NCBI GenBank assembly: GCA_963707505.1
Contig: CAVPQB010000004.1
Span: 224,001-288,000, forward strand
DNA: 64,000 nt
Source of the DNA: an uncultured Gemmatimonadales bacterium
Lineage (GTDB): Bacteria > Gemmatimonadota > Gemmatimonadetes > Gemmatimonadales > Gemmatimonadaceae
Direction of reading: 5' to 3'
Position numbers and translations under genes: made by a program. Below the pieces are notes generated by a model. The model was given only the letters and a program-made list of their open reading frames with translations, ran no database searches and was not told where the DNA came from. Of the stretch, positions 13,772 to 50,143 are shown piece after piece (position 1 is the stretch's first letter; every line of letters starts with the position of its first letter).

Positions 13772-13903
13772 CGGCACGAAAACGGGAATCCATCCGATCG
13801 TCATCCCCGCGAAAGCGGGGATCCATTTGTTGCCGACCCGCGTCCCACGGCCATTGCACTCCGAGATTGATGACATGGATTCCCGCTTTCGCGGGAATGA
13901 CGA
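13766..13903. repeat. REPIN/MITE-like inverted dimer of the CGTCAT palindrome plus a degenerate tandem copy
   Basis: Left arm tcgtcatccccgcgaaagcggggatccat (13798-13826), right arm atggattcccgctttcgcgggaatgacga (13875-13903), 27/29 identical as inverted repeats; degenerate copy at 13766-13793. Confidence 0.9.
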
Positions 13904-41276: not shown

Positions 41277-42227
41277 GTGGGCGCGGAGATGATCCATTCT
41301 CCGCTGATCCCATGGATCGCGTTCAACGCGGTCGTCCTGATCGCACTCGCGATCGACCTGGGTCTGTTCAGCACGAACAAGAAGCTTTCAGTAAAGGAAG
41401 CTGCGATTCGAAGCGCCGTGTGGGTCGCTCTCGCCCTTCTCTTCGCTGCTGGGGTCTTTTACTTCCAGGGCCATCTCGCCGGAGTCGAGTTCATCACGGG
41501 CTACCTCGTGGAGTATTCGCTCTCGGTCGACAACATATTTGTGATGGTATTGATCTTCTCCTACTTCAACATCAAGGAGGAGTATCAGCATCGCGTGCTG
41601 TTCTGGGGCATACTCGGCGCTCTCGTCATGAGGGGACTCATGATCGCGGCCGGTGCGGCCCTGTTCAGCCGGTTCGGTTGGATCACATATGTGTTTGGCC
41701 TCTTCCTCGTCATTACGGGGATACGGATGGGCATGGGCGGCGAGAAGCACGTCGATCCCGGCGCCAATCCAGTGCTCAGGTTGGTTCGTCGTCTGATCCC
41801 GGTTTACAATGAATACGAGGGCGAGCATTTCTTCGTCCAGGTAAGCGACGAGAAAGGCGCAGCGAAGCGCAGAATGGCGACTCCACTGTTCGTCGTGCTG
41901 GTTCTGATCGAGACGATGGATCTCGTTTTCGCGGTCGACAGCATACCAGCGGTGTTCGCCGTGACGCGCGTGCCGTTTCTGGTTTACACGTCGAATGTCG
42001 CAGCGATACTCGGGTTGCGATCGCTGTACTTCCTGTTGTCGGGCGTTGTCGGCAAGCTTCGGTATCTCACCATTGGTCTGGCTTTCATACTCGTCTTCGT
42101 GGGACTCAAGATGCTGACGGCCGCGTGGTACGAAGTTCCCACAGTCGCATCACTCGGTGTGATAGTCGTCATCCTCGGGACCGCCGCCGGTGCTTCCATC
42201 TACGTGGACAGAAGGGAATCCGTGTGA
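41277..42227 (+). CDS. TerC/Alx family membrane protein
   Basis: GYLVEYSLSVDNIFV, QHRVLFWGILGALVMR, ETMDLVFAVDSIPA and SNVAAILGLRSLYF. Confidence 0.93.
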   Translation: MGAEMIHSPLIPWIAFNAVVLIALAIDLGLFSTNKKLSVKEAAIRSAVWVALALLFAAGVFYFQGHLAGVEFITGYLVEYSLSVDNIFVMVLIFSYFNIKEEYQHRVLFWGILGALVMRGLMIAAGAALFSRFGWITYVFGLFLVITGIRMGMGGEKHVDPGANPVLRLVRRLIPVYNEYEGEHFFVQVSDEKGAAKRRMATPLFVVLVLIETMDLVFAVDSIPAVFAVTRVPFLVYTSNVAAILGLRSLYFLLSGVVGKLRYLTIGLAFILVFVGLKMLTAAWYEVPTVASLGVIVVILGTAAGASIYVDRRESV

Positions 42228-42502
42228 CCGGCACCGGGCTGTCGGTCATCGTGACGAACGCCCGCGTCGAGACTGGCAATCCCGCACGTCCCTGGGCGAC
42301 GGCGCTCGGCATCCGGGACGGAAAGCTTGCAGTTGTGGGTACGGCGGCGGAGATTCTCAAGATGGCGCGCGCAGACACGAGGGTAATCGACGGAGCCGGA
42401 CGACTCCTGACGCTTCCTCCGGGAGCGGTCGCGGGAAGTCACGTGACGGTGACTGTTGCGCCAGACGGCCGTTTGACTGTCCACTCATCGCAGGAGCCGT
42501 AA
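42224..42502 (+). CDS. Stand-alone fragment resembling the N-terminal beta domain of amidohydrolases
   Basis: VIVTNARVETGNPARPWATALGIRDGKLAVVG...TRVIDGAGR; GTGA overlap with terC. Confidence 0.65.
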   Translation: MTGTGLSVIVTNARVETGNPARPWATALGIRDGKLAVVGTAAEILKMARADTRVIDGAGRLLTLPPGAVAGSHVTVTVAPDGRLTVHSSQEP

Positions 42503-42507
42503 TAAGC

Positions 42508-44454
42508 GTGGCTCCCAAGTCTCATCCGCTGGATCAGATACTCGGCACACAGGCAGCAGTACGCGTGTTGCGCGTGCTCTCACCAGGAGGAGAGCACGCG
42601 CCCCCACGCATCGCGCGCGAAACGAAGATCAGCAGACCCGCGGTGCGCGAGGCGATCATTCGCCTCGAGAAGGAAGGCGTCGTCGAGCGCGTCGGCGATG
42701 GCCGAAACGTGTTGTACAGAATCTCGTCGAATCACCCACTAGCAAAACGAATCGTGAAGCTTTTCAAGACCGAGGCGAAGCGGGGAACGCTCGCCGGATT
42801 GTTGCTGTTCTGCGCGTCTTCGTTGTTCGCCCAGGGAACCGTGACAGCGCCAGCGCCAGCCGACCTCATAGTGACCGGCGGCCACATCTACACGGTTGAC
42901 GACACGCGGCCGGCAGCGCAGGCGTTCGCGGTGCGCAACGGCGTCTTCACATTCGTCGGATCGACGAGCGAGGCGATGACGCTCAAGGGCCCGAACACAC
43001 GCGTTATCGATCTGCATGGTGCGACGGTCCTGCCCGGTCTCGCCGATGCGCATGGGCACCTGACAGAGCTTGGCGAAACGCTGCACGAAGCCGATCTCGC
43101 CGGCAGTCTGTCATACGAAGAAGTGATCGACAGGACGAAAAAACACGCCGGCGCCGTTCCCAAGGGCGAGTGGATAATGGGACACGGCTGGGATCAGAAT
43201 CGCTGGGCATCCAAACAGTTTCCGACGAGCGATGCGCTGACACGCGCGTTCCCCGACAATCCGGTCGTGCTGGAGCGCATTGACGGACACGCACTGCTCG
43301 CCAATGCGCGTGCAATGCAGGCGGCGAACATCACCGCGGCCACGAAGGATCCGAGTGGCGGCCGAGTCGTTCGCGACGCCAGCGGCAATCCGACCGGTGT
43401 ATTCGTCGACAATGCACAGGGCCTGATCGACCGCGCCGTTCCGCCGCCGACCGATGCGCAGCTGGAACAGGCCATTTCTGCAGCCATTGCCGACGTGCAC
43501 CGCTGGGGCCTCGTCTCGATCCACGATCCGGGCGAGCCGCGCAGGATCATCGACGTCATGGAGTCCATGGCGAAGAAGGGCACCTTCGATCTCCGTGGCT
43601 ACATACTCATAGCCGACGACAGTGCGGCGATCGCGCACTACTACTCCATCGGTCCGCGTAGCGAGCTGTATGGCGGTCACCTCTGGGTCCGCTCGATCAA
43701 GCTCTACGCTGACGGCGCACTCGGCTCGCGTGGTGCAGCACTACTGTCTCCATACTCCGATGATCCTGGCAACACGGGTTTGCTCGTCTCCACCGAAGCG
43801 CATCTTCAAAGTGTTGCGACATCGGCGCTACAACACGGTTTCCAGGTTGCCACTCACGCGATCGGCGATCGCGGCAACAGAAACGCGCTCGATGCATACG
43901 AGGGCGCGCTCAAGGCTGTGCCGACCGCCGATCATCGCTTTCGAATCGAGCACGCACAGATTCTCGATCCCGCCGACATCCCGCGCTTTGCGCAGCTCGG
44001 TGTGATTCCGAGCATGCAGGCGAGTCACCAGACCAGCGATATGCGCTGGGCAGAGGACAGGCTCGGTCCATCGCGCATACGCGGTGCATACGCATGGCGC
44101 TCACTGCTCAATACCGGCGTGATCATTCCGAACGGCACCGATTTCCCGGTCGAGAACGTCAATCCACTCATCACGTTTCACAGCGCGGTTACACGCGCCG
44201 ATTCCACCGGCTGGCCCGACGGCGGCTGGTATCCTGAGCAGAAGATGACGCGGGATGAGGCGCTCAAGTCGATGACGATCTGGCCCGCATATGCCGGATT
44301 CCAGGAGCACGTGATGGGCTCCATCACTCCCGGCAAGTACGCGGACTTCACCGTGCTGGATCAGGACATCATGACGATACCTGCGAGCGACATCCTCAAG
44401 ACGAGCGTCGTCTCGACGTACATCGGTGGCAAGAGCGTTTACGAGCGCAAATAG
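42508..44454 (+). CDS. Winged HTH fused to a YtcJ-like amidohydrolase (Amidohydro_3)
   Basis: N-terminal HPLDQILG...VRVLRVL...RIARETKISRPAVREAIIRLEKEG; then LPGLADAHGH, KLYADGALGSRGA, HAIGD, RIEHAQ and GTDFPVE. Confidence 0.85.
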   Translation: MAPKSHPLDQILGTQAAVRVLRVLSPGGEHAPPRIARETKISRPAVREAIIRLEKEGVVERVGDGRNVLYRISSNHPLAKRIVKLFKTEAKRGTLAGLLLFCASSLFAQGTVTAPAPADLIVTGGHIYTVDDTRPAAQAFAVRNGVFTFVGSTSEAMTLKGPNTRVIDLHGATVLPGLADAHGHLTELGETLHEADLAGSLSYEEVIDRTKKHAGAVPKGEWIMGHGWDQNRWASKQFPTSDALTRAFPDNPVVLERIDGHALLANARAMQAANITAATKDPSGGRVVRDASGNPTGVFVDNAQGLIDRAVPPPTDAQLEQAISAAIADVHRWGLVSIHDPGEPRRIIDVMESMAKKGTFDLRGYILIADDSAAIAHYYSIGPRSELYGGHLWVRSIKLYADGALGSRGAALLSPYSDDPGNTGLLVSTEAHLQSVATSALQHGFQVATHAIGDRGNRNALDAYEGALKAVPTADHRFRIEHAQILDPADIPRFAQLGVIPSMQASHQTSDMRWAEDRLGPSRIRGAYAWRSLLNTGVIIPNGTDFPVENVNPLITFHSAVTRADSTGWPDGGWYPEQKMTRDEALKSMTIWPAYAGFQEHVMGSITPGKYADFTVLDQDIMTIPASDILKTSVVSTYIGGKSVYERK

Positions 44455-46599: not shown

Positions 46600-46748
46600 A
46601 GTTTCGAACGATCGTCCGATCGAGTTATCACGCACGATTTGCCGACCGTGCAGGTCCCGTCCGGCTTAACGTTCGCCTCGTTTTGACGTCGTATGTTTAG
46701 CCGCGCGATCGGGCATGCGCGGCATCAAATCAAGGAGAAGTGAAAGAC

Positions 46749-47261
46749 ATGAAGCTACAATTTCTGGCAGTAGCGGCTGCAGCTGGTCTGATGGCCGTTC
46801 CCGCACTGCACGCTCAGGCAACGACCCCGCCTCAGGCATCGATTACGGGCCACAATCCCCCGCAGCGCGGGATGATGATGCACCGCGGGATGATGCGGAA
46901 CCTGAATCTTACCGCAGACCAGCAGGCCAAGATGAAGGCGATCCACGAGAAGTACGCGCCCCAGATGAAGGCCGCGCGTGAGAAATCCAAGCCGGACTTC
47001 GACGCCATGAAGAAGGCTCGCGCAAGCCACGACACCGCGGCGATGAAGGCAGCTCGTGCCAGGCTCCAGGCCGACATGGCGCCGACCCAGAACGTCATGA
47101 AGCAGCAGATGGCGGAGATGCGTGCGATCCTGACACCTGAGCAACAGCAGAAGATGGACAGCGCGCGCGTGCACATGCAGGGGCGCATGGGCGGACGTGG
47201 ATTTCATTCGGGAATGGGCGCCAGACAGACGCAGCCGGTAAAGCCAGCCAGCACGTTGTAG
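46749..47261 (+). CDS. Spy/CpxP family periplasmic chaperone
   Basis: Signal peptide; LNLTADQQ and ILTPEQQ (LTxxQ) motifs; Met-rich; AAGGAG RBS. Confidence 0.88.
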   Translation: MKLQFLAVAAAAGLMAVPALHAQATTPPQASITGHNPPQRGMMMHRGMMRNLNLTADQQAKMKAIHEKYAPQMKAAREKSKPDFDAMKKARASHDTAAMKAARARLQADMAPTQNVMKQQMAEMRAILTPEQQQKMDSARVHMQGRMGGRGFHSGMGARQTQPVKPASTL

Positions 47262-47302
47262 TCGCCACCGGCCGGCTTTTTCAACCAAGCTCCTTTGCAC
47301 CC

Positions 47303-47342
47303 GACGCGGGCCGTCCTGATTGGATTGCCCGCGTCTTTTTTT
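47303..47342 (+). terminator. Rho-independent terminator
   Basis: gacgcgggc / gcccgcgtc stem followed by a T7 tract. Confidence 0.8.
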
Positions 47343-47423
47343 CATCGGCCTGATTGCAGAACACCAACAGATATTCTCCCTCGCGCGGAACGCCCGCGCT
47401 CACAACCCAAAAAGGGAGATGTC

Positions 47424-47789
47424 ATGACTATCAGCCGGATACTGTTCGCCGCCATCGCATGTTGCGTCACCACCAGCTCGATGAGCGCGCAATCAAACCA
47501 TACCTATTCGCGCCCGAAGGCCGCCATGTGGACCGCGCTGCAGCTCACCGAACCGCAGAAGGCACAGGTGAAGGTCGTTCACGAGAAGTACGTGCCCGTA
47601 ATGAAGGCTGCGCGAAAGATCGGCGCTGACAGCGCAGCCACGATCAACGATCACGAGATGCGCGACGTGCGCGTATTGCTCACGTCGTCGCAGCAGCTGA
47701 CGTTCGATTCGTACATGACGGGCGGGAAGAGGTCGAAGCGGAGTGCGCAGGTGAAAGTGATGCCGGCGAAGATCGCGGTGCCGAGGTGA
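47424..47789 (+). CDS. Short Spy/CpxP-like secreted protein
   Basis: Signal peptide; LQLTEPQK and LLTSSQQ; GGGAG RBS. Confidence 0.7.
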   Translation: MTISRILFAAIACCVTTSSMSAQSNHTYSRPKAAMWTALQLTEPQKAQVKVVHEKYVPVMKAARKIGADSAATINDHEMRDVRVLLTSSQQLTFDSYMTGGKRSKRSAQVKVMPAKIAVPR

Positions 47790-47812
47790 GGTCGCGACTG
47801 GATGATGAGAGT

Positions 47813-48289
47813 CGTCATCCCCGGAAAGCCCGTCATCCCCGCGAAAGCGGGGAACCACGGACGAGGCCATGAACTTAGATCCCATATTTGCAGGAGTGGT
47901 CACTCGATTGAGAGACTCTCATGAGAACACCAACCGTGTACATCCTCGCCAGCAAACCCCGCGGAACTCTCTACATTGGCGTGACATCCAACCTGGTGCG
48001 GCGTATCTGGCAACATCGAGAAGGCGCTACCGATGGATTCACCACTCGGCATCGAATCAAGCGTCTGGTGTGGTACGAACAACATCAGACGATGCTCAGC
48101 GCAATCGCACGAGAGAAGCTTCTGAAGCGATGGTTGCGGCCATGGAAGTTCGAGCTGATTCAAACGATGAATCCGAGATGGCGCGATCTCTGGCCCGACA
48201 TAATCGGCCTGTCGAGACCGCACACTCCTGCAAACTAGGATTGGCGATTCGCATCGTCGTCCGTGGTTCCCCGCTTTCGCGGGGATGAC
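47813..48289. mobile_element. Putative repeat-bounded element carrying a GIY-YIG nuclease
   Basis: Perfect 33-bp inverted repeats at 47832-47864 and 48257-48289; inner 12-bp inverted repeat at 47887-47898 and 48223-48234; truncated extra arm at 47813-47830. Mobility is inferred. Confidence 0.7.
47921..48238 (+). CDS. Stand-alone GIY-YIG nuclease family protein
   Basis: VYILAS...LYIGVTSNLVRRIWQH, GFT, LVWYE, AIAREK.LKRW.R.WK and NP.W.DL. Confidence 0.93.
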   Translation: MRTPTVYILASKPRGTLYIGVTSNLVRRIWQHREGATDGFTTRHRIKRLVWYEQHQTMLSAIAREKLLKRWLRPWKFELIQTMNPRWRDLWPDIIGLSRPHTPAN

Positions 48290-48432
48290 AACCGCCACCG
48301 GTTGCAAATTTTGTCGCCTAGCGTAAAACCGCGCAGCCGAACAATATTCGGCCCCAACAGAACGACGTCGTCGCGGCCGGCTGTGCTGAAGCCGCGACGA
48401 CTGATTCAACCATTCAACTCGCGGCCGACATC

Positions 48433-50046
48433 ATGCCGAATTTTCGCCCCGTAACTCTGCTTGCGTCTATAGTCTGCGCGAGCGTCGTCGCCGCTTCCGC
48501 TTCGGCAGCGGTCGCGCACGCACAGAAGTCGGACTCGGCCGACCTTCTCATCCGCGGTGGCACAGTTGTGGATGGAACCGGCAGTCCGGGCCGAACCGCG
48601 GACGTCGCGGTTCGCGGCGATCGCATTGTCTTTGTCGGTAATGCCGCGACCGCGCACATTCGCGCAGCCCGTACGATCGATGCCCGCGGCCTGATCGTCG
48701 CGCCCGGCTTCATCGACTCGCACACTCATGCGGAATCGGATCTGTCCAGCCCGGCAAGACATGGCAACATCAACTACCTCATGCAGGGCGTGACGACTGT
48801 CATGACCGGTAACGATGGATCGAGCCCACTCGACGTCGGAAAGACGCTCGACACCTGGCAGCGCCAGGGGATCGGCACCAACGCAGCCATGTTCATCGGC
48901 GAGGGATCGGTGCGCGGACACGTGCTTGGAATGTCCGACGCCAAGCCCACCGCTGCGCAGATGGACAGCATGCGTGCGCTCGTCGCGCGCGGAATGGACG
49001 GCGGCGCACTCGGCATCTCCACCGGTCTTTACTACGCGCCCGGAAGCTATGCCTCGACCGAGGAAGTGATCGAGCTTTCCAGGGTTGCAGCGCAGCACGG
49101 TGGAATCTACGACACGCATCTCCGCGACGAGAGCTCCTACACCGTAGGACTCATCGGCGCGGTGAATGAGGCGATCCGCATCGGGCGCGAGGCGCACATG
49201 CGCATCCACATCTCGCACATCAAGGCGCTGGGCACCGATGTGTGGGGTGAGAGCGACACGGTGATCGCGCTCATCAACAATGCACGCGCCGCGGGAATCG
49301 ATGTTGTCGCGTGTCAGTATCCGTACACCGCGTCCGGTACGAGTGTTGGCGCGTCACTTCTGCCACGTTGGGCCGAGGAGGGTGGGCGGGACTCGCTGCT
49401 TGCGCGGATTGCGGATGCGCCCACGCACGCGCGGCTTGTCGCGGACATGCAGAACAACCTGCGCCGACGCGGCGGAGCTGCCGCGCTGCTCATCACGACT
49501 CAGCACGATACCGGTGCGACCGCTGGCCTGCGTGGCAAGACGCTGGATCAGGCTGCGAAGGCGCACAACCGCTCACCGATCGACGAGGCTATCGAGATAG
49601 TGAAGAGCGGTGACGCGAGTGTCGCGTCGTTCAACATGAAGGACGCCGACATCGACAACTTCATGAAGCAGCCGTGGGTGAGCACCTGCTCCGACGGATC
49701 GGGCGGTCACCCGAGAAAGTATGGAACGTTTCCGAGGAAGCTGCGTGAGTACGTGTACCAGCGACACGTTCTCACGCTTCCGCAGGCCGTGCATGTGAGC
49801 AGCGCGCTCACCGCGCACACGCTCGGAATCAAGGATCGCGGAACGCTCGCGGTTGGTAACTACGCCGACGTCATAGTCTTCGATCCGAAGACAGTCGCGG
49901 ACAAATCGACATACGAGCAGCCAACGCTTCTGGCAGTGGGCATGCGATACGTGCTGGTGAACGGCGTTCCCGCGGTCGATGGCGGAACGTACACCGGCGC
50001 GCTAGCGGGGCGCGCCATCAAGCGTGTGGGGACACCGGCGCCGTAG
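48433..50046 (+). CDS. N-acyl-D-amino-acid deacylase family amidohydrolase, secreted
   Basis: Signal peptide; DLLIRGGTVVDGTG, APGFIDSHTH, STGLYYAPG, HLRDE, HISHIK, YPYTAS and HPRKYGTFPR. Confidence 0.9.
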   Translation: MPNFRPVTLLASIVCASVVAASASAAVAHAQKSDSADLLIRGGTVVDGTGSPGRTADVAVRGDRIVFVGNAATAHIRAARTIDARGLIVAPGFIDSHTHAESDLSSPARHGNINYLMQGVTTVMTGNDGSSPLDVGKTLDTWQRQGIGTNAAMFIGEGSVRGHVLGMSDAKPTAAQMDSMRALVARGMDGGALGISTGLYYAPGSYASTEEVIELSRVAAQHGGIYDTHLRDESSYTVGLIGAVNEAIRIGREAHMRIHISHIKALGTDVWGESDTVIALINNARAAGIDVVACQYPYTASGTSVGASLLPRWAEEGGRDSLLARIADAPTHARLVADMQNNLRRRGGAAALLITTQHDTGATAGLRGKTLDQAAKAHNRSPIDEAIEIVKSGDASVASFNMKDADIDNFMKQPWVSTCSDGSGGHPRKYGTFPRKLREYVYQRHVLTLPQAVHVSSALTAHTLGIKDRGTLAVGNYADVIVFDPKTVADKSTYEQPTLLAVGMRYVLVNGVPAVDGGTYTGALAGRAIKRVGTPAP

Positions 50047-50047
50047 G

Positions 50048-50143
50048 TGGATTCACATCGCGTCTTGGGAATCCATGTGGCCCTCGTCATTCCCGCTTGC
50101 GCGGGAATGACGAGACTTGAGCACGCTCCCGCGGAATGACGAC
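50048..50143. repeat. CGTCAT-tagged REP-like palindrome cluster between convergent genes
   Basis: Perfect 14-bp stem ctcgtcattcccgc-ttgc-gcgggaatgacgag (50083-50114); fragments tggattc..gaatcca (50048-50075) and gcggaatgacgac (50131-50143). Confidence 0.85.

Follow-up and report, generated by a model that had tools for sequence, protein, structure and literature searches.

The ssn gene of the window, the stretch of 64,000 nucleotides from an uncultured Gemmatimonadales bacterium that was analyzed here, lies between two inverted copies of its own hairpin repeat, and the resulting 460-bp SRM-ssn-SRM cassette (47831..48290, + strand) very probably moves as a unit. This conclusion follows from a block with 99% identity found in two contexts, the preference of cassettes for sites that already hold a repeat, the discord between cassette and flanks at one site and the existence of gene-free doublets that share the arms. 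The limits of the cassette were set by the arms and repeat matches and by the ends of the block common to two metagenome contigs (L149 and L152). On balance we favor, with moderate confidence, a model in which cuts trigger recombination or repair by the host and the block thereby passes from one hairpin site to another and from one relative to another; whether the cut of the nuclease itself would be the driving event is, on the sequences compared, about evenly balanced. The pairing of gene and repeat and the activity of the enzyme are already published (Chenal et al. 2025, PMC11893778), and the cassette is another member of that system. The present work adds comparative evidence of block movement and of a preference for existing repeat sites, with which the question of mobility becomes testable.

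The ssn gene and its protein

The ORF at 47921..48238 (+ strand) encodes 105 aa in an open frame of 108 aa, and its last codons enter the right arm of the cassette. A preliminary description of the same DNA, made from the letters alone, had called the product a stand-alone GIY-YIG protein. The domain search agreed, Pfam GIY-YIG (PF01541, E=1.9e-14, residues 5-76) being the sole Pfam match, and the protein is single-domain and shorter than 150 aa, the size and domain content of Ssn. A genome-wide search found the gene in single copy. In a gap-free alignment Y7, Y18 and E65 correspond to Y6, Y17 and E64 of SsnA, and all three essential residues are kept.

The protein is 63% identical (E ~1e-37, residues 3-96) to 94-aa proteins of the genus Neisseria (L320, L324, L326 and L327), which carry Y6/Y17/E64 and have strict NTS on both sides, a match being present in 20 of 61 Neisseria-genus genomes. 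These Neisseria-genus proteins stand as proxy for N. meningitidis SsnA itself in the similarity that delimits SsnA homologs (E<1e-10 over >75% of the length). Identities of 65% and 62% were found to proteins of two genomes scored Ssn-positive by Chenal et al. (PMC11893778), the latter being the sole match in U. suis, a species scored positive there. Compared with diverged homologs, dN of ssn was far below dS. NCBIfam assigned no family to the ORF, and a PDB sequence search gave no match at E<=0.01. The protein tree was a quick and weak version built on 96 columns from 166 of 183 rows, the others having been omitted as near-duplicates (13, removed by name) or as partial or rich in stops; by eye, sister pairs in the protein comparison share hairpin stem subtypes. 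Judged by sequence, the ORF almost certainly encodes a member of the Ssn family.

Chenal et al. (PMC11893778) described small cd10448 proteins flanked by SRM hairpins, on both sides in 42%. For N. meningitidis SsnA and three homologs they reported cleavage of ssDNA close to the hairpin, which in the case of SsnA falls a few bases upstream. Cleavage by the homologs was specific for ssDNA and for the strand, dsDNA and RNA not being cut. The cassette resembles that system, with its NTS-SRM repeats, in the single-domain GIY-YIG protein of ~100 aa with three essential residues, the SRM on both sides, the many genomic repeat copies and the repeat-gene-repeat layout. It differs in its Gemmatimonadota host, three Gemmatimonas/Gemmatirosa rows in the table of that paper being Ssn-negative, and in arms that reach 68 bp with a TTTGCAGG box and a stem in which base 24 is A and not T. 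We assigned the cassette to the known Ssn/SRM system because both arms match the SRM, the protein is homologous, the catalytic residues are present and the homologs are flanked in the same way. By analogy, the 105-aa protein is predicted to cleave ssDNA beside the hairpin and would be one more candidate for site-specific cutting of ssDNA, at a hairpin of variant sequence. The preliminary description knew of no established mechanism; the same paper contains the Ssn biochemistry and likens the repeat-gene-repeat layout to IS200/IS605 and RAYT/REP, raising this as a hypothesis (PMC11893778).

Structure of the cassette

The left hairpin repeat (47831..47858, + strand), which is SRM/NTS-like and of the CGTC-type REP kind, matches the SRM pattern exactly and has 4 mismatches to the NTS consensus; the inverted right repeat (48263..48290, - strand) matches the SRM pattern with 5 mismatches to the NTS consensus. 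The SRM are thus within 500 bp of ssn on both sides, and they are the only SRM matches within ~6 kb in either direction. Directly 5' of the cassette (47813..47830, + strand) the repeat is present once more in truncated form, and here the metagenome contig L147 has several partial copies in tandem.

Two inverted pairs had been noted, an outer one with 33-bp arms (47832-47864 and 48257-48289) and an inner one of 12 bp (47887-47898 and 48223-48234). The outer arms are 33 nt long, 100% complementary and 392 nt apart, and the inner pair is exact. Both pairs exist, but they are not separate, being the ends of a single imperfect arm of 68 bp with 52/68 positions matched. The left arm (47831..47898, + strand) is made up of the hairpin, CCACGGACGA, a variable stretch and the TTTGCAGG box, and the right arm (48223..48290, - strand) was delimited by inverted-repeat search. 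The proposed folding of the unit into a long stem was borne out, with a DNA MFE of -118.7 kcal/mol (z=-7.8) equaled by 0 of 100 shuffles. The extended-arm design was seen in 11 of 183 homolog loci, the window's locus counted, and in six gene-free doublets of 182-201 bp of the same genome. The stems of both arms are direct as well as inverted repeats (repeat family D19).

The left repeat keeps the tag G and the C after the stem, both needed according to PMC11893778. It is the predicted Ssn target on the top strand, where the cut would fall a few nt 5' of the repeat, and the right repeat is the predicted target on the bottom strand. As stated before, no target-site duplication is seen at the junctions of 47831-48290; nor is one seen at the L149 and L152 junctions. 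With one copy and no such duplication, the cassette is neither an insertion sequence nor a MITE by the usual definitions. A promoter scan of 47300-48500 gave 0 sigma-70-like sites, leaving the TTTGCAGG box without support as a -35 element, and one terminator-like site against 1.2 expected. Contigs from three DNA sequencing runs were short pieces, one of which crosses the left junction and none of which spans the cassette.

The repeat also fits the description of CGTC-type REPs (Di Nocera et al. 2013, PMC3733652), sharing with them the CGTC/TGTC tag, the 8-9-bp stem, the 4-5-nt loop, the CCA tail, the high copy number and the occurrence mostly as inverted dimers. Those repeats were reported without a dedicated transposase; in that survey no dedicated enzyme was found and 'GIY' is absent from the main text, whereas here the repeat is paired with a GIY-YIG gene.

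Repeat flanking of homologs

The preliminary description had suggested testing whether the palindromes flank homologs of the ORF more often than other genes. Flanks of 500 bp to either side were available for 70 of 80 homolog loci; the SRM lay upstream in 34 of these, downstream in 33 and on both sides in 24, facing inward in 22, as against 4 of 136 control windows.

The Spy-like/amidohydrolase site in relatives

Upstream of the cassette lies a second Spy/LTXXQ-like gene (47424..47789, + strand), whose PF07813 match is weak and below the cut-off (E=6e-4) and which has an 82-nt repeat in common with the first Spy-like gene. Downstream lies a gene for an amidohydrolase family protein (48433..50046, + strand), a synteny anchor identified by domain and synteny searches. 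The two Spy/LTXXQ-like paralogs (46740-47261 and 47424-47789) are in tandem, and at the 3' end of the second the genus has a hotspot of repeats, occupied by ssn, a doublet, other repeats or other genes. Further upstream, in the listed 754-aa ORF at 42190-44454, an amidohydrolase is apparently preceded, in frame, by a helix-turn-helix-like stretch at the N-terminus, and the ORF is possibly two genes or a fusion.

A match to ssn was found in 6 of 21 same-genus genomes, one of them (G016) with an internal stop, and G003 has a broken second copy. Twelve relatives have the Spy-like gene. In G005 and G009 it is immediately followed by ssn and then by a different downstream gene, and in G013 and G003 by a gene-free doublet; in four no repeat was matched, in G018 the contig ends in a repeat, and G014, G015 and G016 have other repeats. 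In these last three the order of Spy-like gene and amidohydrolase is the same as in the window (93-94% protein identity), and the gap holds a different repeat family and no ssn. A clean empty site between the two genes, for which the preliminary description had suggested a search, was not found: G014-G016 hold other repeats, and in G006 and G010 the amidohydrolase is in another context. The gap in L135-L137 (G015, G016 and G014) contains a second, unrelated palindromic repeat family with a GGATGCATCC core, and a similar pattern has 28 matches in the window's genome (G000).

The gene also lies behind Spy-like genes in G007, an unpublished genome, and the metagenome contigs L147, L148 and L150 have it at the Spy-like site. 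In G005, G009, G007, L147, L148 and L150 it has kept its place after the same Spy-like gene and so is often stable, which counts against the proposed mobility. Such long residence, together with the single copy and a dN far below dS, favors the main rival explanation, namely that ssn is a domesticated, restriction-like host gene, a modulator of ssDNA restriction or recombination as in N. meningitidis, and that the cassette moves passively, reshuffled like anything else that lies between abundant repeats by gene transfer and ordinary homologous recombination. The only in vivo phenotype shown for SsnA, a reduced integration of transforming DNA that bears the repeat (PMC11893778), points the same way and counts against movement driven by cuts. 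The presence of ssn in so few genomes of the genus, the stop in G016 and the broken copy in G003 argue against domestication, and we consider this explanation possible but rather unlikely.

Alleles of ssn at this site are not inherited with their flanks. The amidohydrolase of L147 groups with those of G014, G015 and G016 (99/99 support), which have no cassette at the site, and the L147 cassette is 92-96% identical to the window's, against 78-88% in the near flanks. At four-fold sites L147 differs from the window at 6/45 positions in ssn vs 97/244 in two neighbors (p=6e-4), L148 at 22/30 vs 98/274 in the neighbors (p=1e-4) and L150 at 23/30 vs 94/266 (p=2e-5), the key loci L147-L152 being short metagenome contigs, whose assemblies can misjoin at repeats. 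Thus the L147 ssn is closer, and the L148 and L150 ssn are further away, than the flanks, from which the independent inheritance follows. L148 and L150 are 76% identical in ssn and 99% identical downstream of the right arm, a switch at the right arm that would be expected of either a recombination break or a chimera. L005, a 3.8-kb contig labeled Acidobacteriaceae, is probably mis-binned, since it is identical to L150 and syntenic with the window.

Exchange of contents at other repeat sites

The contigs L149 and L152 have a 492-bp block in common at 99% identity, with unrelated flanks; in one of the two the cassette lies behind a recN-like gene and in the other behind an aroE-like gene (names read from translations). 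Since the block is 99% alike and the flanks are 82-85% identical to the window's genome, at least one copy arrived after that split. The common block starts at the CGTC tag and ends at the tag or within 3 nt of it, near the position of the SsnA cut, which argues against the passive shuffling of a domesticated gene. In the window's genome a palindrome with the same rare type of stem lies at the recN site and aligns as if the left start of the L149 cassette had been fused to its right end, and the aroE site holds a degenerate palindrome.

Of the other cassette sites of relatives, 5 of 6 hold the hairpin repeat in the window's genome, as against 98 of 2953 gene ends (3%), in a count for which a second search pattern was added after the recN site had been seen, in which the aroE match is degenerate and two sites are placed by one flank, and from which the family-level G022 site is left out, its flanks not being adjacent in the window's genome. 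The ssn of G016 sits where the window's genome has a 201-bp gene-free doublet. The cassette is thus found mostly at sites already holding the repeat and not at naive sites.

Gene-free doublets were compared in a sample of 44 regions around the first 100 of the 159 directional repeats of G016 (three clusters skipped), with 8 palindromes of G016 and 12 of G015. Of the 36 G016 doublets 35 could be mapped, and at these sites the window's genome has a strict palindrome in 8 cases, a degenerate repeat in 10 (an automatic label, doubtful in two), a single directional repeat in 3, a doublet in 2 and nothing in 12. The reverse case, a palindrome in the relative and a doublet here, is seen at 13800..13901 of the window, where a gene-free 102-bp doublet of the cassette's hairpin repeat corresponds to a single palindrome in G015 and G016, and by eye at two more sites. 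Repeat sites persist while their contents change among cassette, gene-free doublet, single palindrome and nothing.

The sites with nothing in the window's genome (12/35), the IS-like layout, the gene-free doublets with the same arm design and the CGTC repeats reported without a dedicated transposase (PMC3733652) would suit an autonomous element with a RAYT-like nuclease that cuts out doublets, inserts them at new locations and gave rise to the CGTC repeats. We regard such an element as improbable, since there is no target duplication, the gene is single-copy, the tail-to-tail junction expected of an excised circle has 0 occurrences in the genome and the cassettes are mainly at repeat sites. 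To our knowledge, moreover, GIY-YIG chemistry involves neither a covalent intermediate nor strand transfer. The system is similar to RAYT/REPIN (Bertels and Rainey 2011, PMC3116915) in its single-copy nuclease gene flanked by its own repeats, in the fixed-length doublet as a unit and in the palindrome left by deletion between repeats. It differs in the enzyme: a RAYT is an HUH tyrosine transposase, and a REPtron has an HUH Y1 transposase between its repeats, whereas the ORF of the cassette belongs to PF01541, a hydrolytic GIY-YIG nuclease without an HUH motif. Of the autonomous REP-like unit that the preliminary description had proposed, one part stands, in that gene and CGTC hairpins belong together and the block acts as a unit. 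The other part, a spread of the repeats driven by the nuclease, stays hypothetical in view of the single copy, the repeat-rich genomes without an ssn match and the preference for repeat sites.

The repeat family in the genome

The hairpin is repeated throughout the genome, where its core matched 77 times; five control genomes drawn from a first-order Markov model had no match at all. With looser criteria the number rose to 142 matches, which form 82 clusters. Gene-free inverted doublets account for some of these, 13 with a length of 101-112 bp and 6 with one of 182-201 bp. Single full palindromes number 32, against 0-2 in controls, and one of 26 bp, the form of a collapsed doublet, lies at 50086..50111 of the window.

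The six longer doublets (G000 C3:85249, C3:487804, C4:12049, C4:323255, C6:56929 and C6:361728) have arms with a fixed spacing from the hairpin to a TTYGCAGG box and varying bases between, the design of the ssn cassette arms. They were considered as deletion derivatives of ssn, an origin that was not supported because their interiors gave only 7-nt chance matches and the arms alone are shared. That these interiors are unlike ssn counts against our preferred explanation.

The 102-bp doublets of G000 and G016, such as that at 13800-13901, have nearly invariant ends and an interior of fixed length that is ~71% alike between any two copies; the 112-bp form is 10 bp longer. At one site common to G000 and G016 the doublet interiors are 77% alike and the flanks 93-97%. 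A recent clonal burst of the G016 doublets was not supported, the interiors being 71% alike within and between genomes (one misoriented row included). With ~71% likeness within as between genomes, insertion and collapse are indistinguishable.

An effect of intact Ssn on the yield of palindromes was not supported, the ratio of palindromes to directional repeats being 0.03-0.64 with an intact gene and 0.03-0.44 without one in tallies of the genus that include the unpublished genomes G007 and G017. G016 has the most repeats (159 directional) and an ssn with an internal stop. Both observations count against movement triggered by the nuclease, and repeat numbers and palindrome ratios that are not tied to an intact gene agree with domestication. 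Thirteen genomes of the genus, which include G000 and are mostly incomplete MAGs, have at least 18 directional repeats, and 7 of these gave no match to the ssn protein.

Repeat-rich genomes without detected ssn could also be explained by a Y1/HUH transposase or recombinase that acts in trans and moves the doublets, ssn being cargo in one of them. Two Y1_Tnp matches in the genome and the citation of dRS3 as target of a phage recombinase (PMC11893778) are compatible with this explanation. By eye, no CGTC repeats lie within 900 bp of either Y1_Tnp match, which are on another contig and one of which looks truncated, the text of the 2013 survey gives no such link (PMC3733652), and the repeat-flanked homologs across phyla would be left unexplained; a mobilizer in trans therefore appears very improbable. 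The Y1_Tnp matches (RAYT/TIRYT-like; G000 C6:582144-582467 and C6:766487-766648) apparently lie between long inverted repeats of another type, and gene-free repeats similar to those around them occur at C2:144628, C1:53793 and C6:141578.

Putative mechanism of movement

In the mechanism that we favor, Ssn would bind the hairpin in single-stranded DNA and cut it a few bases upstream. The first step would be a cut at a hairpin exposed on the lagging strand, in a cruciform or in incoming DNA, and repair of this cut templated by another hairpin-bounded locus would copy or swap the interior, be it the gene or a short spacer. In a second step slippage between the arm stems would delete the interior and leave the 26-bp palindrome, as may occur because the arm stems are also direct repeats. 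A long palindrome left by deletion between REPs has been mentioned for REPINs (Bertels and Rainey 2011, PMC3116915). In a third step the palindrome, which lacks the C after the stem, would be invisible to Ssn: it is predicted to escape because it has G where SsnA needs C for binding, and doublets or single directional repeats would then be the targets.

Tentatively, Ssn cassettes may even be minimal homing elements with a multicopy target, in which repair copies the gene or a gene-free doublet between hairpin sites and species, and the 26-bp palindromes would be scars or landing sites that Ssn does not recognize. The swapping of alleles at the same site and the preference for repeat sites would fit homing-type behavior. 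GIY-YIG homing endonucleases of the I-TevI type are modular and cut dsDNA at one long site, usually in introns or phage genomes. They belong to the same catalytic fold family and spread by a cut and copying repair, as proposed here for the cassette. Unlike them, the window's protein has no module for DNA binding and is predicted to act on an ssDNA hairpin that occurs in many copies and is carried by the cassette itself. GIY-YIG enzymes hydrolyze DNA and are not known to rejoin ends, and if the cassettes do home, the missing mobilizer of CGTC REPs would be a nuclease without joining activity.

These considerations bear on what spreads the CGTC repeats (PMC3733652) and on the hypothesis that the repeat-ssn-repeat unit is mobile (PMC11893778). 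The text of the latter paper has no comparison of filled and empty sites of the kind made here, and a literature search, mostly of papers outside subscription, found no study of Ssn mobility beyond the hypothesis in it. The genus offers natural filled, doublet-only, palindrome-only and empty versions of sites, together with a 99%-identical cassette at two loci, and such versions define exact donor and target substrates for a test of mobility. In other phyla, further candidates for recent movement are the ssn pairs L012/L071, L073/L225 and L060/L214, which have 90-94% DNA identity and no shared flanks.
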